Source: Coraliomargaritaceae bacterium
GTDB taxonomy: Bacteria > Verrucomicrobiota > Verrucomicrobiia > Opitutales > Coraliomargaritaceae
NCBI GenBank assembly: GCA_965656495.1
Contig: CBFHKU010000003.1
Coordinates: 96,001 to 160,000 of the forward strand
DNA: 64,000 nucleotides
Reading direction: 5' to 3'
Of the stretch, positions 3,770 through 54,648 are shown in pieces. Within the stretch, counting starts at the first letter, position 1. Each line of letters starts with the position of its first letter. Both the position numbers and the translations under genes were made by a program. The notes under the pieces were generated by a model that ran no database searches, had not been told where the DNA came from, and saw only the letters and a program-made list of their open reading frames with translations.

Positions 3770-4750
3770 ATGAAGACAGAGAAAAACAAGCCAGCGCAGG
3801 AGGAATTACTCCAAGCGCCGGGTGCGCCCGAAAAGAGCTACGATAAGGATTTTGTCCTGACCGATGCTTATCGCGAGAGCTTGCCTGATATGCAAAATGC
3901 GGACGCCCGCGAAATTTTTGGAGCGAATGTCCCGATCCTGAAAGTGGGGATTTCCAACTTCCGCTTGCCCCTGCGCTACATTCGCCCGAACTCCGATACC
4001 ATCAATTTGGAAACCTCTGTGACCGGCACCGTGTCGCTGGAGGCCAACCAGAAGGGGATCAATATGTCGCGTATTATGCGCGTTTTTTACGAGTTTGAGG
4101 AGCGTATTTTTACTCCGGACCTCCTGCAGGAGATTTTGTTGTCCTATAAAAAGGAACTGCGGGCGCACCGCGCGCAACTGAAATTGGAATTTGAATACCC
4201 GATTCTCAAGCCGAGCCTGCGCTCTGGATTGGAGGGTTGGCAATACTACCGCAGCGCTTTTGAAGGGCGCATTGATGAGCTGAATCGCTTCCGCAAATAC
4301 CTGCACTTTGATTTTGTGTATTCCTCGGCGTGCCCGTGTTCCTCCGAACTCGCGGAGCATGCGCGGGGTCAACGCAATGTATACGGGATTCCGCATTCCC
4401 AGCGCAGCACCGCGCGCGTGAGCGTCGAAGTCGTGCCGGGTGAACACCTCTCGCTCGAGGATTTGCAGGCGATTTGCCTCGAGGCGCTCAAGACCGAGAC
4501 GCAGGTCATGGTCAAGCGGGAAGACGAACAGGCCTTCGCCGAGCTCAACGGTGCCTTCACAAAATTCGTGGAGGATGCCGCCCGTTTGCTTTACGAGGAA
4601 TTGGAGGCGGAGCCGCGCATTCACGATTTCCAAGTGGCCTGTGCGCACCTTGAGTCCCTGCATTCCCATGATGCCGTTGCTGTTATTCACAAGGGCTTAC
4701 CCGGGGGCTTTAGTGGTCAATTCGACGATTTCAAGGGCTTGCTGCGCTAG
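3770..4750 (+). CDS. folE2: GTP cyclohydrolase IB (FolE2)
   Basis: KGINMSR, SACPCS, PHSQRS, VKREDE, FVEDAAR and ESLHSHDA motifs. Confidence 0.95.
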
Positions 4751-4878
4751 TCGTTGCCAGTTTATTCACAGTCCCTGTGGCGTTGCTGTGAATTTTGGGA
4801 ACAAGTCCGGCGATTGCATGTAAATAGGTGCTTCGCCGGATTAAATCCGCAGTCATTGGAGCTAGGTAGACAAATATT

Positions 4879-5430
4879 GTGAGTAAATTAGAAAAAAGTA
4901 CTGCCACGGAAGACGAGCGGTTCGATGTTGTTAACACGGAGGACGAGGTCGTTGAGGTAAAAACGCGTGCGGAGGTGCATCGTCTGGGTTTGAGGCATCG
5001 CGCCATTCATGTTTTCGTCTTTAATGCCGCCGGAGATATCTTCCTGCAGCGCCGCTCCATGAATAAAGATTCCGCTCCGGGGAAATGGGTGAGTTCCTGC
5101 TCCGGCCACGTCGATAGCGGTGAGGATTACGATCCGGCGGCAAGGCGTGAATTGGGTGAGGAGATCGGGCTTTATGAGCCGCTTGAATTTTCGCGGACTT
5201 TTAAGGTGGAGGCCTGTCGCGAGACCGGGAACGAATTCGTCTGGTTGTACACCTGTAAGGCGGAGGGCCCCTTCGAGTTGGACCCCCATGAAATCAGCGA
5301 AGGCAAATGGGTGAGCCTTGAAGATTTGGAAGCGTGGATCGATGCCCGCCCCAGGGATTTCTCTTGGTCCTTCATCTATCTTTGGGAGAAATATACCGAG
5401 CAAGCCGCCGCAGGCGAGGGAAGCTCCTGA
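4879..5430 (+). CDS. NUDIX hydrolase (IDI type 1/YfcD-like)
   Basis: [30 protein letters not shown]...[11 protein letters not shown]udix box. Confidence 0.85.
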
Positions 5431-5493
5431 TATTTTCAGAGAGGGAGCGGCTTGTCGCTTGCCACGCGAGGCGAGATCAGCACGCTTGGTCAA

Positions 5494-6132
5494 ATGTCTG
5501 GCAGTTCAAGCACCGCACGTCCACGTCTCGCCGTCATCGATTACGGCATGGGTAACCTGCGCTCGGTCGTAAAAGCCTGGGAGCATGTCGGTGCCGATGC
5601 TTATTTGGCGGGCGAACCGGAGGCGGTTGGCGACGCCGACGCGGTGGTATTCCCCGGTCAGGGCGCGATGGTGGATGCCATGCGTCGGCTGAGTGAAACC
5701 GGATTTGACCGCGTCATCCGGGATTGGATTGAGGCGGATAAGCCTTTCTTCGGGATTTGCCTCGGCCTGCAGGCGCTCTTTGAGTCCACGGAAGAGGGCA
5801 ACTGCAAGGGCTTGGGGGTCTTTGAGGGATCGGTCCGGCGTTTCGAGGTCGATCCCTCCCTGAAGGTGCCGCACATGGGCTGGAACAGCGTGACCTTTGC
5901 AGAAGGAGCGCCGCTCACCGAGGGCTTCGAGAGCGGGGTCGACCAATTCTACTTTGTGCACAGTTATCACATCGTTCCGGCAGATTCCTCCCTTGTTTGG
6001 TTTGAGACCGACTACGGGGGTTCCTTCGCCTCGGGCATCCAGCGGGGGCGTTGTTATGCCACCCAGTTCCACCCTGAAAAAAGTCAGTCAAAAGGATTGC
6101 AACTTTACGCGAATTTTTTGTTATGCTTATGA
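5494..6132 (+). CDS. hisH: Imidazole glycerol phosphate synthase glutaminase subunit
   Basis: [35 protein letters not shown] and QFHPEKS motifs; ATG at 5494. Confidence 0.96.
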
Positions 6133-6198
6133 CTGTCTCTTTTTCTAACTGAGGCTTGCATAACGATTAACCCAATTTTACTGAATACACCCTGAGAC

Positions 6199-7491
6199 AT
6201 GGAGGAGCAAACCGCACTCATTCGCCTCGACGATACTAACTACGAATTCCCCCTTATTCTAGGAACTGAGGGCGAAAAAGCCTTTGATATACGCAGCCTG
6301 CGCGCGAAATCCGGCTACATTGCCTTTGATGAAGGCTACGGTAACACCGGTTCCTGCCTGAGTGATATCACTTTTATCGACGGCGAACAGGGGGTCTTGC
6401 GGCATCGGGGTTACCCCATCGAGCAACTGGCGGCAAAGTCCACCTTCCTCGAAACCGCCATGCTCATCATTTATGGTGAATTGCCCGCTGAGGAAAAACT
6501 AAACACCTTTCGCCAACAGGTGCGCGGCAGTGCGACGATTCACACCAGCATGCACCACCACTTTGAAGGCTTCCCCAGCAACGCCCATCCCATGTCGATT
6601 CTTTCGGCGATGCTCAATGCCCTCGGTGCCTACTACCCCGAGATGTCCTCCAATGACCGCGAGCAGGACCTCGCCCATTTTGATGAGACCGCCGCCCTCC
6701 TGATTTCCAAAGTGCGCACCATTGCGGCCATGACCTTCCGCATGAAAAAGGGACTCCCCTTTGTGGCGCCCGACCACTCGAGGCGCTATTGCGAGAATTT
6801 CCTCCATATGATGTTCTCTGAGCCCTACGAGGAATACGTCGATAATGTCGGAGCGGGCGATGCCCTCGATCTCTTCCTGCGCTTACATGCTGACCACGAG
6901 CAAAACTGCTCCACCTCAACCGTGCGCATGGTCGCATCCGGCGGTGCAAATCTCTTCGCCTCCGTCTCCGCCGGGGTCTGCGCTCTCTGGGGGCCCTCCC
7001 ACGGCGGCGCCAACATGGCGGTCGTGCAAATGCTCGAGGATATCCACGCCAGCGGTGACGACGGGTCACGCTTTATCGAGGCCGCCAAAGAAGGCAAAGC
7101 CAAGCTCATGGGCTTCGGGCACCGCGTCTACAAAAACTACGACCCCCGCGCCAAGATCCTCGGCAAGACCGTCGAGCAAGTCCTCACCCAAATCGGCGTG
7201 GACGATCCCCTGCTCAAGATCGCCCGGCGTTTGGAGCAATCCGCCCTCGAGGACGATTACTTCGTCAGCCGCAAACTTTATCCCAATGTGGATTTCTACA
7301 GCGGGATCCTCCTGCGCGCCATCGGCATCCCGCCGGAAATGTTTACCGTCATGTTCGCGATTGGCCGCATGCCGGGCTGGATCGCAAATTGGAAGGAAAT
7401 CGCCGAAAACCCCAAGGGCCGTATTCACCGACCCCGCCAGATCTACACCGGTCAAGGGCTTCGCGACTACACCCCCCTCGAAAAACGCTAA
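6199..7491 (+). CDS. gltA: Citrate synthase
   Basis: [35 protein letters not shown] and YPNVDFYSG motifs. Confidence 0.97.
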
Positions 7492-8279
7492 GCGGAATCC
7501 CCGCTCTTACTCGCTTTCTCTTCCGGCGCGTGGACCACGTCCTCCAGCTTCAGGCCCGTGTAGCGGTGGATGCCGCGCAGCAACATCCACAGGGCCAGCA
7601 CCATAATCGCGAGACTCGGCACCACGATCACCGGCCAGCTCCACGCCATCATTTTCGCCACCTCCGCATTGAAGGCATCCGAACCACTCGGGCTCACCAC
7701 AATCCAGCGCGCCAGCATAAAATTTAAAACCGCGCTCAACAGAAACGAGCCCGCCAACAGCCAGGTGCATTTTTCCAGCAGCTTCTCAAAACCCGCCACC
7801 GAATCATTTTCCTCCAGCGCAGCCTGCACCTTATCGACATCCATAATCTCCGGCGAGTAGAGCAGCGTCCGGATCAAAGGGTAGGGCGTCTTCAGCGAAA
7901 TCACCACCGCTATCCCAATCAGCGCCGGGATCGCCGCCTCCTTCACCGCAAACCATTCCGTCGGAATATTCAGGATGCCGATCCCGCCCGTCAGCAGCAC
8001 GCTGATCAGTCCCAGAATCGAGAGGAAGTTGTATTTCTGCCGCTTGAAATAATCATAGATGAAATAGACGACTGGGAAAGCCAGCGCGATCAACAGAATC
8101 GGAATCGCGACATTCTCAAAGTGCGGCTCCAAATAGGCGCCGAACCAACCGCGCCCCTTATTTAATATCATAATCGGCAAAAGAATATTAAAGCCGAGGT
8201 TGAGGAACATGTTCTCCTTTTTCGGTGCCGGTTTTCCCGCCGTCGAACTTTCCGAGGTGCTGTGTTGCGAAGCTGCCAT
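7488..8279 (-). CDS. Integral membrane protein (VC0807/septation protein A-like family)
   Basis: Multiple TM helices; [25 protein letters not shown] and [10 protein letters not shown] pattern; start could be 8279 or 8300. Confidence 0.65.
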
Positions 8280-8304
8280 AAACCGCACTAGGCTTCCCAC
8301 TCAT

Positions 8305-8955
8305 ATGTCAAATGCAAGCTCTATCCGCTGCCTCATCACCGCCGGACCGACCCGCGAGTTCCTCGACCCGGTGCGTTTCCTGAGTAATCCCTCCACCGGT
8401 AAGATGGGTTTTGCCCTCGCCGAGGCCGCCCTCCGCCTCGGTTGGAATGTCGATCTCGTCGCCGGCCCCGTCAGCCTGCCCGAGCCCGAAGGCGCCATCC
8501 TATACCCCGTGGTAAGCGCCGAGGAAATGTTCCATCAGGCCGACGCCCTTTTCGATGCCTGCGATGTCTGCATCATGGCTGCCGCCGTCAGCGATTTCCG
8601 CCCCGCGCACTATCAAGCCCAAAAAGAAAAGAAGACCGATGCCGCCCTCAGCCTCCAACTGGAGCGCACCCCCGACATCCTCGCCACCCTCACCGAGCGC
8701 AAACTCCATCAAACCGTGGTTGGATTCGCCGCCGAGACCCAACACCTCGCCGAAAACGCCCGCGCCAAACTCGCCGCCAAACGCTGCGACCTCATTATCG
8801 CCAACGACCTCACCCAACCCGGCGCCGGATTTGCCACCGATACCAATACCGTCACCCTCTTCGCCGCCGACGGTTCAGACGAAACCCTCGGCCCCGCCCT
8901 CAAATCCGCCCTCGCCACCGAAATTATCCACCGCATCGCCCGCCTCCGCCCTTGA
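8305..8955 (+). CDS. coaB: Phosphopantothenate-cysteine ligase (stand-alone CoaB/DFP domain)
   Basis: [39 protein letters not shown] and IIAND motifs; no CoaC flavoprotein domain. Confidence 0.9.
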
Positions 8956-8976
8956 GCCCGCTTCCAGCATTGTCAT

Positions 8977-9034
8977 CCCCTCAGTCTTACTCATACTCTA
9001 AATCCTAATCTTAATCCTACTCTTAATCTTAATC
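8977..9034. repeat. Left arm: CCCC followed by nine tandem hexamers (consensus YTAMTC)
   Basis: cccc tcagtc ttactc atactc taaatc ctaatc ttaatc ctactc ttaatc ttaatc, read directly. Confidence 0.9.
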
Positions 9035-9064
9035 CTCCCCCCCCCATCTAAAACAACAGTCCAC

Positions 9065-9463
9065 ATGGCTTCCGCCCTCGATCACGAAAAATTAAAGGTG
9101 TATCAAAAAACCCTTCAATTTATCAGTGAGGTGGAAACGCTGCGAAGCGAAATCCCCAAAGGACACACCGCCGCAATCCATCTCGAACGAGCCGCGACCT
9201 CCATCGCACTCAACATTGCAGAAGGAAATGGTAAATATACCGCCGCAGACCGTTGCCGATTTTTTGATATTGCCCGAGGCTCTGCCACTGAATGTGCCGC
9301 AGCTCTGGACATCCTTAATGCAAAAGCAGTCCTCAGTAATGAGACTACAATTCCCGCCAAGGCCCTGCTTTCTGAAATTGTTGCGATGTTGGTCGGATTA
9401 ATTCGCAGTCAAAATTCTGGACGAACGCACGAACCTCCTCAGCCTTACAATGCAAAGGATTAG
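9065..9463 (+). CDS. Four helix bundle protein (23S rRNA intervening-sequence protein / TIGR02436-like)
   Basis: HEKLKVYQ...LERAATSIALNIAEG..K....RCRFFDIARGSATEC signature; AT-richer than flanking genes. Confidence 0.9.
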   Translation: MASALDHEKLKVYQKTLQFISEVETLRSEIPKGHTAAIHLERAATSIALNIAEGNGKYTAADRCRFFDIARGSATECAAALDILNAKAVLSNETTIPAKALLSEIVAMLVGLIRSQNSGRTHEPPQPYNAKD

Positions 9464-9493
9464 CTTGTGCTTTCTGAATTGTTGGAAAGGTTA

Positions 9494-9551
9494 GAGTGAG
9501 ATTAAGATTAGGATTAAGATTAGGATTAAGATTAAGAGTAAGAATAAGGGG
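9494..9551. repeat. Right arm: nine tandem hexamers (consensus GAKTAR) followed by GGGG, inverted relative to 8977-9034
   Basis: gagtga gattaa gattag gattaa gattag gattaa gattaa gagtaa gaataa gggg; 50/58 positions match the reverse complement of the left arm (hand alignment). Confidence 0.9.
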
Positions 9552-9580
9552 AAGAGGAAGTTTATCATTTATAAAGGCAT

Positions 9581-10765
9581 ATGAAAAATACCGGGCTTGA
9601 TAAAATCCTGGGCCGAATTGAGGATCTCGACTCGGTCAACCTCGGTATTCTCGTCCAGCGCCTCGCCCGCGAGCGCAAACTTCAGGAAACCGTCTTCAAT
9701 ACCATTCAGGATGGCATCCTCGTCATTGATACCGATGGCATCGTGCAATACGCCAACGCCGCCGCCCTCGGCATCATCGGTCTCAAGGAAAACGACATCG
9801 GCACCGCCCGCCTCTGGAAAATGGTGCCCGACCTCGCCCGCTCCATCGACCCGCAAAGCGTGGACGGTTCCCGCGCCGCGAAACCCGTCCTCGCCCGCGA
9901 AGTCGAGCTCACCTATCCCGAACGCCGCTACCTCCGCCTTTATATGGTGCCCATTGCCACCCAGGTCGGCGCGTCCGATAGCGGCGGTTACGTCGTGGTC
10001 CTCACCGACGTCACCGAAGACAAGGTCACCCTCGAAGAACGCATCGAGAGCGAACGCATTGATTCCATCATGCGCCTTGCCGCCGGAGTCGCCCATGAAC
10101 TCGGCAACCCCCTCAACTCCCTCACCATCCACCTGCAACTCATCAAGCGTCAACTCGCCAAACTAGAAGCCGACGCCGGGTCGCCCGCCTCCAAATCCAT
10201 CGCCGATTCCCTCCAAATCTGCCAGGGCGAAGTTTCCCGCCTCGATGGCATCATTACCCATTTCCTCGAGGCAGTCCGCCCACAAAAACCCGAACTCAAC
10301 GAGATCAACCTCCTCGAACTCGTCGAGGAAGTCCTGCGCGTGCAGGAGGCTGAGCTCGTGGACCGCAAGCTCGAGATCGACATCGAGGTCAACGATACCC
10401 CGCCCGCCATTCTCGGCGACCGCGGACAAATCAAGCAGGTCTTTTTCAACGTCACCAAAAACGCCATGGAAGCCATGCAGGCCGGTGGACAACTCCGCAT
10501 CCGTACCGCCCTCGACGACGAATTCCTCACCCTCCAATTCATTGACACCGGTTCCGGCATCGCCGAAGCCGACCTCGCCAAAGTCCTCCAGGCCTATTAT
10601 ACCACCAAAGAAGAAGGCCATGGCCTCGGCATGATGATCGTCCAACGCATCATGCGCGACCACGGCGGACAAATCGGAATCGAATCCCGCGAGGGTGCCG
10701 GCACCGTCATTTCCCTCCAATTCCCCCTCCCGCATCGCCGCACCCGACTCCTCGAAGGCGATTAA
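9581..10765 (+). CDS. PAS-domain sensor histidine kinase
   Basis: PAS ([22 protein letters not shown]), H-box [13 protein letters not shown]-box KNAMEAM, DTGSGI, YYTTK and GHGLGM. Confidence 0.92.
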
Positions 10766-10828
10766 AAACAATTACTTGCGCATAAATGGTTGCATACCGC
10801 CAAATTCTCTTTTTTCTCCTCCGCTAGC

Positions 10829-11986
10829 ATGGCAAACGGTTTTAAAGAAGGAATACTCGCATTTGAAGACGGAACAATTTTCCGCGGACGCGCCTTTGGA
10901 GCCGCCGCCACCAAAACCGGAGAGGCCTGTTTCAACACCAGCATGACCGGTTATCAGGAAATCCTGACCGATCCCTCCTATTTCTCCCAGATCATCACCA
11001 TGACCGCCGTCCAGATCGGGAACTACGGTATTTGCCCCGAGGATGTTGAATCCGATGGCCCCAAGGTTAGCGGCTTCGTGGTGCGTGAGGTCAGCCCCCT
11101 CACCAGCAATTGGCGGAGCAACCAGTCCATCCAGGACTACCTCACCGAAGCAGGCATCCCCGGCCTCGAAGGCGTCGATACCCGCGCCATCACCAAAAAA
11201 CTCCGCGTCGCCGGTGCCCTCAACGCCTGCCTCAGCACCGAAGGCCTCAGCGATGAGGAAGCCGTCGCCAAAGCCCGCGATTTCGGCGGACTCGTCGGAG
11301 TCGATTTTGTCAAGGAAGTCACCGCCGCCGCCCCCTACGATTGGACCGCCCGCGGCGAGCCCTGCACTCCCTTTACCGTCGTCGGTACCGATATAAGCAC
11401 CGCCCCCGTTCCCCAGCAACGCTTCAAAATTGCCGCCCTCGACTTTGGCGCCAAATACTCCATCTATCGCCGCCTCCAACAACACGGCTTCGACGTCCAC
11501 GTCTTCCCCGCCAACACCCCCGCCGAGGCCATCCGCGAATTCAATCCCCAGGGACTCTTCCTTTCCAACGGCCCCGGCGATCCCGCCGCCGTCACCTACG
11601 CCCACGCCACCGTGCGCGAACTCATCGACCATTATCCCACCTTTGGCATCTGCCTCGGGCACCAGATCATCACCCACGCCCTCGGCGCCGAAACCTTTAA
11701 GCTCAAATTCGGGCACCGCGGCGGCAACCAACCCGTCAAGAATCTCGAGACCGGAAAAGTTGCCATCACCGCTCAGAATCACGGCTTCGCCTCCACCAAA
11801 GAAGAACTCGAAAAACACGGCGCCATCGTCACCGAGATCAACCTCAACGACCAAACCGTCGAAGGCCTCCGCCTTAAGGACCGCCCCGTCTTCTCCGTGC
11901 AATACCACCCCGAGGCCGCCCCCGGCCCCAACGACGCCGACCCCCTCTTCACCGAATTCCATCAACTCGTCGCCCAACACGTATAG
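10829..11986 (+). CDS. carA: Carbamoyl-phosphate synthase small subunit
   Basis: [45 protein letters not shown] and [10 protein letters not shown] motifs. Confidence 0.97.
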
Positions 11987-12004
11987 GGTGTGGGTGGCTA
12001 AGGG

Positions 12005-12036
12005 GTGGGAAAGTGCAAAGGTGTGAAAGTGGGAAG
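12005..12036. repeat. Tandem octamer array (GTGKGAAR family) after the carA stop
   Basis: gtgggaaa gtgcaaag gtgtgaaa gtgggaag; same family as 54186-54225. Confidence 0.75.
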
Positions 12037-12464
12037 GTTAGGGAACGTCAAAAGTAACCCACGCGCCAACCAATAGCATGTGTACCAGTGATGCCATTTT
12101 TTAAGGAAACGCATACAGAAGCTTCTTGGCTACGAAGCCTTCATGGTTAGAGCGGTCGATGGATCTGCATGACTTCGGTGCAGGTTTTTGAAAAACCAAC
12201 GGCAACCGAAGCGATAACAGGCATCCCGGTTCCTTTATGGAAGGGAAGCTTGCTTATTCGTTGAACACCCAAGCACAAAGCCCACCTCGAATGTGCGTGT
12301 CCCGGTTAACCGCAGGGTCCAAGCGGAACCCAATCTGCCGGACCGCTGCTGAATTCGGTATGGATGCGACTCCTGCAGCTATGTATTTCAATTTATGACT
12401 CAGCTGAAGCACAATCGCAAGCATCCAGCTTCTGTATTGCCCTAAGGCCAGCTTAGCTGGCGAC

Positions 12465-12491
12465 CGCTAATGGGCGCTGATTTTCGCTAAT
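12465..12491. repeat. Three CGCTRAT units at 10-nt period
   Basis: cgctaat ggg cgctgat ttt cgctaat. Confidence 0.55.
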
Positions 12492-12521
12492 CCTTAAAAC
12501 AAAAATATGAGCGGTTCCCGG

Positions 12522-12663
12522 CTCTGCGTTTTATATTCTAACGCGGAGGAGCTCTCAAACTCTGCGTTTATGATTTAACGCGGAGGAGCGGAGGATCAGA
12601 GGCTCTGCGTTTATGATTTAACGCGGAGGAGCGGAGGAGCGAAGGGCTCTCAAACTCTGCGTT
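12522..12663. repeat. REP-like hairpin array, three full units and one half unit (CTCTGCGTT-loop-AACGCGGAG)
   Basis: Units at 12522-12548, 12560-12585 and 12603-12628, half unit at 12655-12663; linkers made of GAG/CGGAG/CAGAG subrepeats. Confidence 0.9.
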
Positions 12664-12674
12664 GGATAGTTGAC

Positions 12675-12703
12675 TTGCAAATTATTGTGAAATCGCAGAT
12701 AGT
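12675..12703 (+). promoter_or_regulatory. Possible sigma70-like promoter of the TA operon
   Basis: TTGCAA - 17 nt - GATAGT, ending 6 nt before the ATG at 12710. Confidence 0.35.
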
Positions 12704-12709
12704 AAAGGT

Positions 12710-12895
12710 ATGGATGCAATGGAAGTCATCGACCACTTCAAGCGCTTACCTGAAGAAGAACAAGGTAAGGTCGTTGAGTTCATCCGTAAGGATAGCTCTG
12801 CGAAAGTGCGCTATGCCGACGATGAGGCTGCCAAAGCTGCGGGCGAGGCTGTCTTTAATGAACACCCCGAAGTGTTCCGCAAGTTGGCACAATGA
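12710..12895 (+). CDS. Putative antitoxin
   Basis: 61-aa ORF overlapping the toxin gene by ATGA; C-terminal ...EHPEVFRKLAQ resembles Doc-associated antitoxin tails. Confidence 0.7.
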   Translation: MDAMEVIDHFKRLPEEEQGKVVEFIRKDSSAKVRYADDEAAKAAGEAVFNEHPEVFRKLAQ

Positions 12896-13275
12896 GCGAT
12901 CCGGTCTTTTTGACGACCGCTCAGGTAGAAGCTTATCACAGACGAGGCTTGGAGCTTTATGGCGGTTCCGAAGGTCTCCGGAACCGTTCTCTTTTTGAAA
13001 GTGCGGTAGCTCAGGCTCAGAACGTATACTGGTATGGAAATGGCGACCTGTATGACATTGCGGCGGCTTACTGCTACTATATCGCACAAGTCCAAGTGTT
13101 CCTTGATGGGAATAAAAGGGCTGCAACTGCTGCATGCTTGGCCTTCCTGAAGTTGAACGGTGTCAGAACTGATATTGAACTGACGATGCCTCTCTATAAT
13201 GCCTTGATTGATATTGCAGAACATCGCATGGACCGTGACGGTCTGGCGGGCATGCTTCGCGAGTTGCTCACATAG
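12892..13275 (+). CDS. Death-on-curing (Doc/Fic family) toxin-like protein
   Basis: YGGSEGLRN..LFESAV, DL..IAAAY and QVFLDGNKRAA..ACLAFLKLNG motifs; Gln at the His position. Confidence 0.88.
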   Translation: MSDPVFLTTAQVEAYHRRGLELYGGSEGLRNRSLFESAVAQAQNVYWYGNGDLYDIAAAYCYYIAQVQVFLDGNKRAATAACLAFLKLNGVRTDIELTMPLYNALIDIAEHRMDRDGLAGMLRELLT

Positions 13276-13341
13276 CCGCAAAAGGGGGTTAAAGGTGGGA
13301 ACGTTGAACGACGGGCGTTGTTGAGTTGTGACCCTTTGCTG

Positions 13342-13465
13342 CTCTGCGTTTATGATTTAACGCGGAGGAGCAGAGGAGCAGAGGCTCTGCGTTTTATATT
13401 TTAACGCGGAGGAGCGGAGGAGCAGAGGGGCTCTGGAACTCTGCGTTTTATATTTTAACGCGGAG
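13342..13465. repeat. REP-like hairpin array, three units, same orientation as 12522-12663
   Basis: Units at 13342-13367, 13385-13411 and 13439-13465. Confidence 0.9.
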
Positions 13466-13474
13466 GGGCGCGGC

Positions 13475-15052
13475 TCAATTAAGGAGGGCGTTGGATTCGA
13501 GCCAGGTGAGGAAGTTGTCGGTGGCGGCTTGGGCGGTGTCGACGGGGATGCCGCCACGGGCGCGGACTTTTTCGGCTTCATTGGGTTCAAAGGTACGGAT
13601 GATGGCTTTGGCGGATCCGCTGCGAAGGGTGTCGAGGGCGACGCGGGCGTCGCGGCTGCGGCGCATGGAACAAAGCACGACACGGGCTTCGCGGGCATTG
13701 ACCTGTTGGAGGACGCGGGCGTCTGAGCCGTCGCCCTGGAGGGCATGGTTTCCGCGTTCCCGGAGTTGGCGGACCACGGAGGCGTCGTCATCGACCACTA
13801 TAACTTCGAGCCCGTGCTCGATGAGGAATTGCACAGTCTGGCGGCCCGCGCGTCCGTAACCGAGGAGGACGGCGTGATCCTTAAAGGTTTTAAATGCATC
13901 GCTGCGGGCGTAGCGGGGTTTGGGGTGGAGCTTCATGAGTCGCCAGGCGATGGAATCGCGCGACACCAGGGGGGTGAGGGTCATGGTGCCGACCGTGATG
14001 AGGGCGAGCATGGAGAAGAGTTCGGGGCTGAGGTGTCCGGCGCTCATGCCGAAGAAGGCGAGGAGGAGGGAAAATTCACTGGTCTGGGAAAGGAGGATGC
14101 CGGCTTCGAGGGCGGCGCGGGTGGAGTAGCCGAGCCGCTCGGCGAGGAAGGTGACGAGGAGGACCGTGACGAGGATGAGGACCAGAATAAGGACGAGGCC
14201 GTGAACCGCCATGGAGGCGGTGGGGAGGGTCAGGACAAAACCGATGCTGATAAAAAAGAGGGCGAGGAAGAAACCGGTGAGGGAATGGAGCATGCCCCGG
14301 ACGAGTCCATTCATGGGGAAGGCGGAGAGGACAAAGCCCGCGAGGAAGGCCCCGACGAGGTAGGGGAGGTCGAGGAGGTGGGCGATTGCGGAAAAGGTGA
14401 AGAGGGTGGCGAGGGCGCCGAGCATGAGGGTTTCTTCATCGGCGCTGAAGCGACCGCAGACCCAGGGGATAAGGCGTCGGTGGAGGAGGAGGGCGGCGGC
14501 ACCGAGGGCGAGGGCTTTGAGGAGGGCGGTAGCGCAGAGGAGGGGTCCGCCTGCCACCGCTTGCAGGCCTACGATCACGAGAATGATAAAGACGTCCTGC
14601 ATGAGGAGAACGCCCACTACGAGGCGTCCGTAGGGTTCAAAGAATTGGCGGCGTTGCTGGAGGTGGCGCACCGCCACGAGGGTAGAACTGGCGGAAAGTG
14701 CCGAGCCAATATAGAAAGCGGTCATCCAATCATAGCCGAGCCACCGCGCGGTGAGGCTCCCGGCGAGACCCAGCAAGAGGAACTGGGTGAAGGCTAGGAT
14801 AAGAACCGGTCGGGCGCGGCCTTTGACGCGGCGTGGGCTGAGGTCGGCGCCGGCGGTAAAGACGAGGACCGCGAGTCCGAGCTCGATGGTTTCACGCACA
14901 AGGGCGGGATCGATCTGGATTTGAAGGGCATCGGCGAGGAATTGGAGGCCGACCCCGCCGAGCATGAGGAGCGGGATGACGGGAAGTCGCACGAGCTTGG
15001 CGAGGCCAAAGGCGAGCGCTGCCACAAGGAGGAGGATGGCGTAACCGCTCAT
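13475..15052 (-). CDS. CPA2 cation:proton antiporter with TrkA-N (KTN) domain, Kef-like
   Basis: Many TM helices; SASSTLV, LLMQD, GAFLAG, SQTSEFS; C-terminal GYGRAG; ATG 15052 overlaps the upstream stop. Confidence 0.9.
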
Positions 15053-16737
15053 GACTGCACGAGCCCCTCCTTGAGCAGGATTTCTTTTTGTGCAATAGTA
15101 CCGTCGGCGGAGGGCATCAAGAGGTAGGCGGTTTCGAGGTCGAGCAAGTCGTCCACCATGGAAAGGTCGAAGGCATGAATGGCGCAGCGCACCCCAAAGG
15201 TTTTGCAACGATAGGCAAGGAGGTGATTAACGTCCTCGATTTGAAGAGCGGAAACCACCAGGCGGGCGCGGCGCAGTCCGATTTCCTCCACCACCGATTC
15301 GTATTCAACACTGCCGATAAAGGTTTCGGCTGCGCCGAGGCCGTCCAGTTTGCGGGGGTCGGTATCGACTGCGAGGACCGCTTGCCCTCTGGCGGCGAGG
15401 GCGGTTGCGATGGCGCGTCCCATCGCGTTCATGCCGACTATAATGCAATGCCCGCTGCGGGAATCCTCTGCCTCGGTGAGGGTCTTTTGTTTACCGCCGA
15501 GGAAGCGAAGGACGCCGCTCTTTTCGCACACCCGGTAAAGTGCGTTCGCGTGGAGGATGAGGTAGGAAGAGACCGCGATTGTGACGAGCCCCACCATCCC
15601 GCCGAGGGTGACGAGGGGCCCGCCTATGAGTCCGGAACTGGCACCGAGTGCGAGGAGGATGAAGGAGAATTCACTGACCTGCCCGGTGGCGATGGCGGTA
15701 TGGAAGGCGGTGTGAGCATCAAAGCGCATCCGGGTGAGGATTGTAAATACGAGGAGTGGTTTTATGAGGAGCACGAAAACGCTGAGGGCGAGCGCCGCGA
15801 CCCAGACGGTTCCGAAGTCCTGCACTTCCATGCGGATGCCGAGGGTCACGAGAAAGACCGCGATGAAGAAAGTCATGAGGGGGTGGAGGCGGCGATGCAG
15901 GTCTTCGTGCATCGGCAATTGCGCCACTGCGACGCCGGCGAGGAAGGCTCCGATTTCGAGGGAGAGATGGAATTGGTGAGCGAGGAGGACGATAAGGAAG
16001 CACCAGCAAAGCGCCCAGATAAAGATGGTATCGGGGGAGTTGGCGGCCCATGCAAAGGGGCGGGGCAGGAGGTAACGCGCTGCCGCAAGCACCACCAAGA
16101 GGAGTAGTGCCATCCCACCGAAGGCGACCCCAAGGCTTTTGAGGACGGGGCTCAGTTCAAAACTGGCACCGCTCCCGAGGCCGCTCAGGACCGTGAGGGC
16201 GAGGATTACGACAATGTCCTGCCCGAGGAAGAGGCCGACTGCGAGGCGGGCGTAGCGGCGGTGCATGTGCCCCTTTTGGTCGAGCAATTTAATGACGACA
16301 ACGGTGCTGCTGAAGGTAACGGTCGCGGCGAGGAAGACCGCGGGGAGCCATTCAAAGCCCAGGAGGCGCGCCACTGCAAATCCGCCAAGGGCGGTGAAGC
16401 ATACCTGAAAACCGCTCAGGAGGAGGGCGGCTTTTCCAAGGTCCTTGATTTTCCCGAAGCTCAGTTCGAGGCCGACGAGGAAGAGGAGGAGGGCGATGCC
16501 GAGTTCCGCAATGAGTTCGAGGGAATGATCGATCGCAACCAGCCCGAGGGCGGGGCCGAGCAAAAGCCCCGCGAGGAGGTAGCCCACCAGTGACGGCATC
16601 CCGATTTTTTTCCCGAGGAACGCAAAGGCGGTCGCCGCGAGGATGATGTAACCGAGGTCGAGGAGTAGGGTGACTTCTGAAAAACCGTCCACGCATTCAT
16701 TGAGAGGCGTATTCCCGGCGGTGGCAATACCACGCAA
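15049..16737 (-). CDS. CPA2 cation:proton antiporter with KTN domain, Kef-like paralog
   Basis: [31 protein letters not shown] and GQVSEFSF motifs; C-terminal GMNAMG; start uncertain. Confidence 0.9.
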
Positions 16738-54173: not shown

Positions 54174-54185
54174 GCGGCGTTTGGA

Positions 54186-54225
54186 GTGGGAAGGTGTGAA
54201 AGTATAAAAGTGGGAAGGTGTGAAA
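54186..54225. repeat. Left arm: five tandem octamers (GTGKGAAR)
   Basis: gtgggaag gtgtgaaa gtataaaa gtgggaag gtgtgaaa. Confidence 0.88.
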
Positions 54226-54244: not shown

Positions 54245-54595
54245 ATGAGTGATTTTGCAGAGCGGTTTGAGGATCTGCGCATTTGGCAGGAGGCGCGTGG
54301 TTTGGTGAATGCGATTTATGAGGCGATGGGCGAGTGTCGGGACTATGCCTTTAAGGATCAAATTACACGGGCGACAGTCTCAACAATGAATAATATTGCT
54401 GAAGGTTTTGAGCGCCGCTCTTCGAGGGACTTTGGTCATTTTTTGGACATTGCGAAAGGTTCTGCCGGTGAAGTTCGAAGTATGCTTTATCTCGCGGAAG
54501 ACCTGAAGCTAATCGGTTCAGCCCTTTCCAAGAATTTAAGAGAAAAAGCACGCGTACTTTCTGCGGGGATTGCTGCCTTTCGCCGCAAATTATAA
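54245..54595 (+). CDS. Four helix bundle protein (23S rRNA intervening-sequence protein / TIGR02436-like)
   Basis: RFEDLRIWQEA...DYAFKDQITRATVSTMNNIAEGFER....F..FLDIAKGSAGEVRSMLY signature. Confidence 0.92.
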   Translation: MSDFAERFEDLRIWQEARGLVNAIYEAMGECRDYAFKDQITRATVSTMNNIAEGFERRSSRDFGHFLDIAKGSAGEVRSMLYLAEDLKLIGSALSKNLREKARVLSAGIAAFRRKL

Positions 54596-54598
54596 AAC

Positions 54599-54630
54599 CT
54601 TCACACTTTCAAACCTTTCCACCTTCCCAC
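54599..54630. repeat. Right arm: four tandem octamers, inverted relative to 54186-54225
   Basis: cttcacac tttcaaac ctttccac cttcccac. Confidence 0.85.
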
Positions 54631-54648
54631 CTCAGCTCAGCTGAAACA

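Follow-up and report, generated by a model that had tools for sequence, protein, structure and literature searches.

Proteins of the four-helix-bundle family PF05635 are, to our knowledge, widespread and represented by solved pentamer structures, with no known function outside DGRs, and we likewise know of no explanation for the short intergenic arrays of hexamers to octamers. Among the closest described systems are the intervening sequences (IVSs) of 23S rRNA that carry an S23p ORF. Specifically, the accessible text of PMC4990558 describes in the Coxiella IVS a 28-bp stem, heptamer tandem repeats before the S23p ORF and RNase III cleavage at the first repeat, and the same protein domain occurs in CPR 16S and 23S insertions, according to the available part of bioRxiv 2024.02.27.582315. 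Among relatives with solved structures, 2GSC is reported to be a homopentamer (PMC4990558, accessible text), and all five protomers of Avd touch one RNA stem-loop via the same residues (bioRxiv 2023.10.23.563531, accessible text). No description of a word-armed four-helix-bundle cassette outside rRNA was found in the literature searched, which consisted largely of open-access main texts.

The locus studied here lies in a window of 64,000 nt (the whole stretch of DNA that was analyzed) from a 2.06-Mb Coraliomargaritaceae genome, G000. A coaB-type gene with a DFP C-terminal domain (8305..8955, + strand) is followed by a host spacer (8956..8976, +) common to the empty alleles of three genomes of the same genus (G001, G002 and G005), which places the left border of the cassette at 8976/8977. 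On the other side, a spacer that aligns poorly with the empty alleles (9552..9580, +), leaving the right border unfixed to the base, leads to a PAS histidine kinase gene (9581..10765, +). The initial annotation had placed the cassette between co-oriented coaB and kinase genes with no transposase nearby, and both statements hold: the two flanking genes and the cassette gene share one strand, and the 12 Pfam-scanned ORFs from 3770-15208 include no transposase. Together with one further ORF at 54245, the 13 scanned window ORFs include no transposase and no reverse transcriptase, and no flanking direct repeat above threshold was detected at the cassette. The one reverse transcriptase gene of the genome (G000:C13:33267-33737, an open frame of 480 aa) is unlinked to any four-helix-bundle gene, its two Y1 transposase genes lie on contigs C9 and C15, and an RNase III gene is present in the host. 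Elsewhere in the window (12500-13470), a small ORF precedes a Doc/Fic toxin gene (12892-13275, TIGR01550), and the two are bracketed by copies, in direct orientation, of a repeat with an 8-9-nt word that resembles one beside a GxxExxY gene. The gene labels gltB/gltD, rfbA, ubiB and phasin are names that we presume to apply.

The cassette itself (8977-9551) consists of a gene between two inverted arrays. The left, pyrimidine (TC) arm (8977..9034, +) is CCCC followed by nine hexamers of the NT(A/G)NTC family, and the right, purine (GA) arm (9494..9551, +), its reverse complement, is nine hexamers followed by GGGG. On recount, the arms were complementary at 50/58 positions (~85-86%) and stood 30 nt from the ORF on either side, exactly as first described, and a repeat search lengthened this pairing to 62 nt with 85% identity. 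The left arm, originally written as nine copies of YTAMTC, does have nine units, but the strict word in just six, including an uninterrupted run in the five gene-proximal units (9005-9034, +). The description of the unit as AT-rich is borne out by a GC content of 0.47-0.51 over the cassette versus 0.59-0.65 in flanking 300-nt bins. Folding of 8960-9580, a check that the initial annotation had proposed, returned a stable stem (z = -5.67 as RNA and -6.71 as DNA, with 0/20 shuffles equally good). The predicted core stem (9001..9527, +) comprises a 19-bp helix (9001-9019/9509-9527) and an 11-bp helix (9021-9031/9497-9507), separated by one mismatch and with mean pair probabilities of 0.98-0.99, and would loop the gene out; in size it is close to the 28-bp stem of the Coxiella IVS. 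Long-range pairs, numbering 30-90, appeared in 12/12 folded junctions. No Rfam family matched within 8800-9700, and arms acting as a promoter or terminator were rejected as a candidate, given one promoter-like site versus 0.8 expected and no terminators.

Not all of this symmetry is informative. The in-register match of 85% reflects the background of the word family, because other tracts in the genome match equally well: the left arm pairs with 21/46 of them as well as or better than with its partner, and for the right arm the figure is 37/46. This ruled out 50/58 as a special co-adaptation of this arm pair. Similarly, the equal unit numbers and exact 30-nt spacing emphasized at first are true at this locus, yet incidental, because both vary among the homolog cassettes considered below, where unit numbers are equal in 13/57 and the gap varies from 2 to 141 nt upstream of the start codon and from -49 to +146 nt relative to the stop codon; they were accordingly dropped as design features. 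Thus, the arrangement of a gene between arms far exceeds chance, whereas the degree of arm match does not.

The enclosed gene (9065..9463, +), of which the hexamer clade has one copy in G000, encodes a protein of 132 aa that scores above cut-off for both TIGR02436 (72.5 bits, cut-off 24) and PF05635 (77.4 bits, cut-off 33.8), in agreement with the original family assignment. Its predicted structure (pLDDT 90.5) has the fold of pentameric 2GSC (TM 0.82), 2RLD (TM 0.73) and Avd (4DWL, TM 0.72), so that the proposed likeness to Avd holds by fold, at TM 0.70-0.72. Matches in the ESM Atlas were exclusively PF05635 clusters, and profile and fold comparison yielded no transposase-family match; we know of no catalytic role for the protein. 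By analogy with 2GSC and Avd, it would be a homopentamer. Codon comparison indicates purifying selection on the intact gene, with dN/dS of 0.05-0.15 in the seven measurable of nine intact gene pairs, the other two being saturated; between G000 and the damaged gene of G006, there were five non-synonymous and three synonymous changes.

The history of the coaB-kinase junction could be followed through the family. The kinase was found in 88/101 family genomes, and 85 loci were taken, of which seven lacked an adjacent coaB, leaving 78 junctions. Intact genes occupied 12 of these and damaged genes nine (eight deleted or truncated and one full-length with motif changes), while four retained arm stumps and 53 were empty, ten of the latter with a 4-nt overlap of coaB and kinase. 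The empty sites that the initial annotation had suggested looking for are therefore abundant, and the cassette is far from fixed among relatives. Three congeneric genomes (G001, G002 and G005) have empty junctions, which share the spacer up to 8976 and do not align at the right border; the nearest relative, G006, carries a 24-residue deletion in the gene and short arms of two and four units; at some junctions, arms outlast the decay of the ORF. The cassette was also present at contig breaks in G003 and G247, and G199 has the gene at a different site. Cassettes or relics occur in 8/17 genera and require 13 changes on the kinase tree. These alignments show gene and arms to be a discrete presence/absence unit, and the cassette to be an old resident of the junction, often lost by what appear to be internal deletions that leave arm stumps. 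A mobile cassette had been the first reading, and it was this survey that moved our view towards an old, single-copy resident.

The trees add a qualification. Ten site genes from other genera fall on one branch (75/85) and cluster by genus within it, a pattern compatible with a single old insertion followed by many losses. The window's gene sits on a long branch and was unplaced in both quick and careful trees; a single clade uniting it with the other site genes appeared in 0% of 200 bootstrap trees and was not rejected by the AU test (p = 0.35). For the origin of the window's copy, orthology and re-acquisition are both compatible with the trees. Named records sharing the junction belong to Opitutales-type Verrucomicrobiota. 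Three empty junctions, in G031 (L011), G014 (L024) and G026 (L030), hold hairpins of other 9-nt words, and the junction is tolerant of several repeat families.

RNA data came from five runs with shares of 0.05-0.22, four of which were compared, as contigs only. One contig of metatranscriptome run X1 (depth 2.3) skips 574 nt (8990..9563), joining 8989 to 9564, and shows 16 differences across the 216 nt that precede the joint and none across the 86 nt that follow it. Because the joint lies off the stem base and leaves a stump like the genomic ones, a deletion allele of another strain is the probable source, and a skip at the level of RNA or reverse transcription the less likely one. In run X5, the right arm is three units (18 nt) shorter, and run X4 yielded a 184-nt contig identical to 9075-9258, which alone is no proof of transcription. 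Metagenome contigs, searched for strain alleles, gave 0 matches to two patterns.

The word itself extends well beyond the cassette. G000 holds 48 hexamer tracts of at least four units in 31 intergenic regions without the gene (51 tracts under a looser rule), besides heptamer and octamer arrays, and four PF05635 genes, three of which are flanked by clear inverted arrays, each gene having a word of its own (6, 7 or 8 nt long). The heptamer-armed gene (G000:C1:370514-370879), with five and nine units, sits between two glutamate synthase-like genes, and its copy in G006 has an internal stop. The octamer-armed gene lies within the window (54245-54595, +) between two co-oriented genes, with arms at ~54180-54225 (five units) and 54595-54635, and has orthologs of 69-100% in eight other family genomes. 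The fourth paralog (G000:C3:59881-60237) has weak heptamer-like flanks, no better than shuffles; downstream of it, the start of the interrupted gene recurs in degenerate form, as if insertion had duplicated its target. The gene-less tracts stand in mosaics with heptamer and octamer words, 9-mer hairpins resembling those beside GxxExxY genes (five genes), and REP-like repeats resembling those beside one of the two Y1 transposase genes. Such mosaics reach 1.5 kb (C1:93800-95000, C1:101100-101850, C4:154500-157300, C5:1050-4250 and C5:150600-152100), mix all these words with REP-like palindromes, and in some cases surround toxin-antitoxin-like genes. No strand bias was found for gene-less tracts in co-oriented gaps (12 vs 15), and convergent gaps held 11/43 placed tracts versus 102/700 gaps overall.

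Across the family, a full or near-full gene (E < 1e-45) occurs in 16/101 genomes, in one copy each except for a duplicated contig in G216, and all 16 have 21-159 overlapping hexamer matches. Genomes lacking the gene reached at least 15 matches in 12/85 cases; eight of these 12 retain a junction relic, G003 has an arm at a contig end, the G235 contig ends at coaB, G233 has no coaB match and G014 is unexplained. The association nevertheless rests on related genomes and is not significant after phylogenetic correction, as six independent pairs gave 2.5 in the same direction, 0 opposite and 3.5 without difference (p = 0.25). Further, octamer arrays are predicted by the octamer gene (5/9 with vs 3/92 without) but not by the hexamer gene (2/16 with vs 6/85 without); because hexamer arrays, too, are predicted by the octamer gene (6/9 with vs 22/92 without, p = 0.002), general repeat richness confounds the link. 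The initial annotation had listed hexamer tracts occurring genome-wide and unlinked to these genes among the observations that together would speak against it; such tracts do exist, 48 of them without a gene, while all 16 gene-bearing genomes are array-rich, at p = 0.25 for the pairs. The uniqueness that it implied for the locus is lost to these tracts, to the chance symmetry and to a design common to the protein family.

That design becomes visible among homologs. Among 544 relatives of the cassette protein, the best 80 (46-78% identical, from about ten phyla) were examined, and 57/74 scorable loci had inverted NT(A/G)NTC arrays, the TC arm being upstream in 44 and reversed in 13; of the rest, six had the same strand on both sides, ten were one-sided and one was without arrays. 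Arm complementarity, whose conservation had been in question, is thus kept across phyla. For comparison, 61 loci were drawn from other four-helix-bundle clades, namely the top matches to two paralogs across 150 genomes of the class together with one own paralog, and an NT(A/G)NTC tract was found in 0/58 scorable loci of this set; an inverted hexamer pair occurred in 0/177 control windows. The repeat period was 6 in 74/75 loci of the hexamer clade, whereas the other clades had period 7 (heptamer arms) in 43/59 and inverted arms in 51/59. A quick tree of 140 rows, after six duplicates or fragments were dropped, resolved the hexamer clade as a single branch with support 100; the clade had been picked by similarity to the query, and the outgroup came from one class alone. 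These comparisons of loci show that each four-helix-bundle protein clade appears with a repeat word of its own. The two arms of a locus shared a word variant more often than when permuted (0.627 vs 0.504), which lineage effects could also explain. By a crude choice of ORFs, upstream neighbors fell into 55 families among 75 loci, and the gene was co-oriented with its upstream neighbor in 55/66 and its downstream neighbor in 47/61. Flanking direct repeats of 20-90 nt were present at 9/81 loci; at six (L039, L053, L062, L072, L075 and L088), repeats of 40-90 nt flank the cassette as a possible trace of an insertion mechanism, those of L053 including the start of the downstream gene. Phage was set aside as a vehicle, as none of 71 pattern matches on viral contigs was a relative.

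One regularity may connect the word to the protein. Five units were found in the TC arm of 32/57 cassettes versus the GA arm of 15/57 (p = 0.002), and when the set was thinned to 28 loci of <66% identity (19 scorable), the counts were 12/19 and 5/19 (p = 0.049), the TC arm never exceeding six units. The genome-wide tracts of G000 likewise have their mode at five units (22/48, with a threshold of four), and a rough count in other clades peaks at 4-5; the window's locus, at nine units per arm, departs from it, as does that of G006, at two and four. A word in runs of five beside a protein of five putative subunits suggests that the protein recognizes its own repeats, possibly with one word per subunit, and the same count may also be explained by a preferred stem length of ~30 bp.

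Our preferred interpretation, to which we assign a probability of about one half, combines these lines: the cassette would be of IVS type, placed outside rRNA, and its pentamer would bind its own word. Transcribed from the coaB operon, the arms would pair into a stem of ~30 bp that loops out the ORF and serves as an RNase III-type substrate; the protein would sit on its word as a five-subunit ring, one unit per subunit, on a single or paired strand, and the ring would thereby decide what becomes of the stem and of the message encoding the protein. Through this word recognition, the gene-less copies would also be maintained in the genome. A DNA or duplex target fits as well as single-strand RNA, because there is no strand bias and 13/57 cassettes have their arms reversed. 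Transfer to new sites would be rare and would need a borrowed enzyme or recombination, because no catalytic role is known for the protein. From the IVS-like reading first offered, this retains the discrete unit, the empty sites, the conserved complementary arms and the stable stem, without the implied uniqueness. Were the stem alone to matter, with RNase III excising the ORF from the operon message and the protein a passenger, the 19+11 bp stem, the host RNase III gene, the survival of arms after ORF decay and the occurrence of both arm orientations would all be accommodated, and the Coxiella IVS, which has heptamer repeats, is cut by RNase III and carries a decaying ORF (PMC4990558, accessible text), would be a parallel. 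Any inverted repeat would then suffice, however, yet one word family tracks one clade over about ten phyla; the ORF is under purifying selection, and a cut mRNA, unlike rRNA, would presumably have no folded scaffold to hold its pieces. We consider this alternative unlikely.

The action could instead lie in DNA, with a vertically kept single-copy gene whose product would act with a nuclease or an HUH transposase that it borrows, copying or protecting hairpins of the word in single-stranded DNA around the chromosome in the manner of RAYTs and REPINs, the conservation of the latter depending on the RAYT (bioRxiv 2021.07.10.451892, available text). A single gene copy beside arrays that number in the dozens in each genome, genus-level vertical inheritance at this site, the absence of strand bias, the share of tracts in convergent gaps (11/43 against 102/700) and the mosaics with REP-like repeats resembling those beside a Y1 transposase gene are all in keeping with this; the protein, however, lacks a transposase-family match, its relative Avd binds RNA, and the clade has also spread over phyla into many different sites, so that we find it rather improbable. 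A host regulator is also conceivable, analogous to the TRAP ring, that controls many transcripts via dispersed arrays and is autoregulated by its own arms. Purifying selection and the five-unit mode in genome-wide tracts (22/48) agree with it, as does the regulatory role proposed for Beggiatoa heptamers (PMC4679880, accessible text), but the gene is absent or broken at 66/78 junctions, and the arrays lack a consistent strand or position, lying in mixed mosaics rather than leaders, which makes such a regulator very unlikely. Least credible of all is a neutral by-product, in which slippage and fold-back copying made the arms and shared ancestry alone ties them to the gene. Strain-variable unit numbers (18 nt fewer in run X5) and an arm match at family background would be expected of it; however, the word persists across many phyla beside proteins that share just 46-58% identity with the query, the arms of a locus share a word variant (0.627 vs 0.504), and TC-arm length is narrow.

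If word binding holds, two open questions would be joined, and a protein of 15 kDa might offer a compact, sequence-specific nucleic-acid-binding ring. More tentatively, and with less confidence than in the combined reading, four-helix-bundle (S23p/Avd-like) pentamers could be clade-specific readers of tandem words, five per ring, with a resident gene maintaining a genome-wide word population in a RAYT-like but non-transposase fashion. Were this true, the large PF05635 family would gain a function, the 6-8-nt intergenic repeats of many bacteria would be explained, and rRNA IVSs would be cases of such cassettes that landed in rRNA. The window's locus is an ordinary member of the class, and its value lies in the history traced over 78 junctions and in the counts of genes against arrays.

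Set against described systems, the cassette differs from IS elements and MITEs in having no transposase, one copy in the genome and no flanking direct repeat above threshold. The heptamer repeats of Beggiatoaceae, Cyanobacteria and Bacteroidetes are, like its words, intergenic and tandem (2-6 copies), patchy and apparently horizontal, with no known mechanism, but are mostly direct repeats before start codons, whereas the cassette word has six letters and is linked to a single gene clade (PMC4679880, whose accessible text has no mention of "four helix", "pentamer" or "intervening"). With RAYT/REPIN systems and TIRtrons, it shares a single-copy gene with its own flanking inverted repeats, gene-less dispersed copies and long vertical residence, differing in the lack of an HUH or tyrosine transposase and in tandem 6-nt words instead of 20-40-nt palindromes (PMC3733652; bioRxiv 2021.07.10.451892; accessible text of both). 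Avd (4DWL, 8UB7) is alike in fold and, as described in the accessible text of bioRxiv 2023.10.23.563531, is a pentameric barrel with five protomers on one RNA stem-loop, but the two proteins are 13-14% identical and the cassette gene has no adjacent reverse transcriptase, template or variable repeat. Thus, the cassette has an IVS-like design, yet is not a member of the IVSs, being outside rRNA, nor of DGRs, RAYT/REPIN systems or IS elements. Unlike 23S rRNA IVSs, it lies between protein genes (coaB and the kinase), its hexamers on both sides form the entire stem, its ORF shows purifying selection instead of decay, and its word has dozens of gene-less copies. With the IVSs of Coxiella burnetii and Leptospira, as the accessible text of PMC4990558 portrays them, it has in common the protein family, a terminal stem that loops out the ORF, a similar size, short tandem repeats of variable copy number before the ORF, and a sporadic distribution with empty sites in relatives, here 53/78 junctions.
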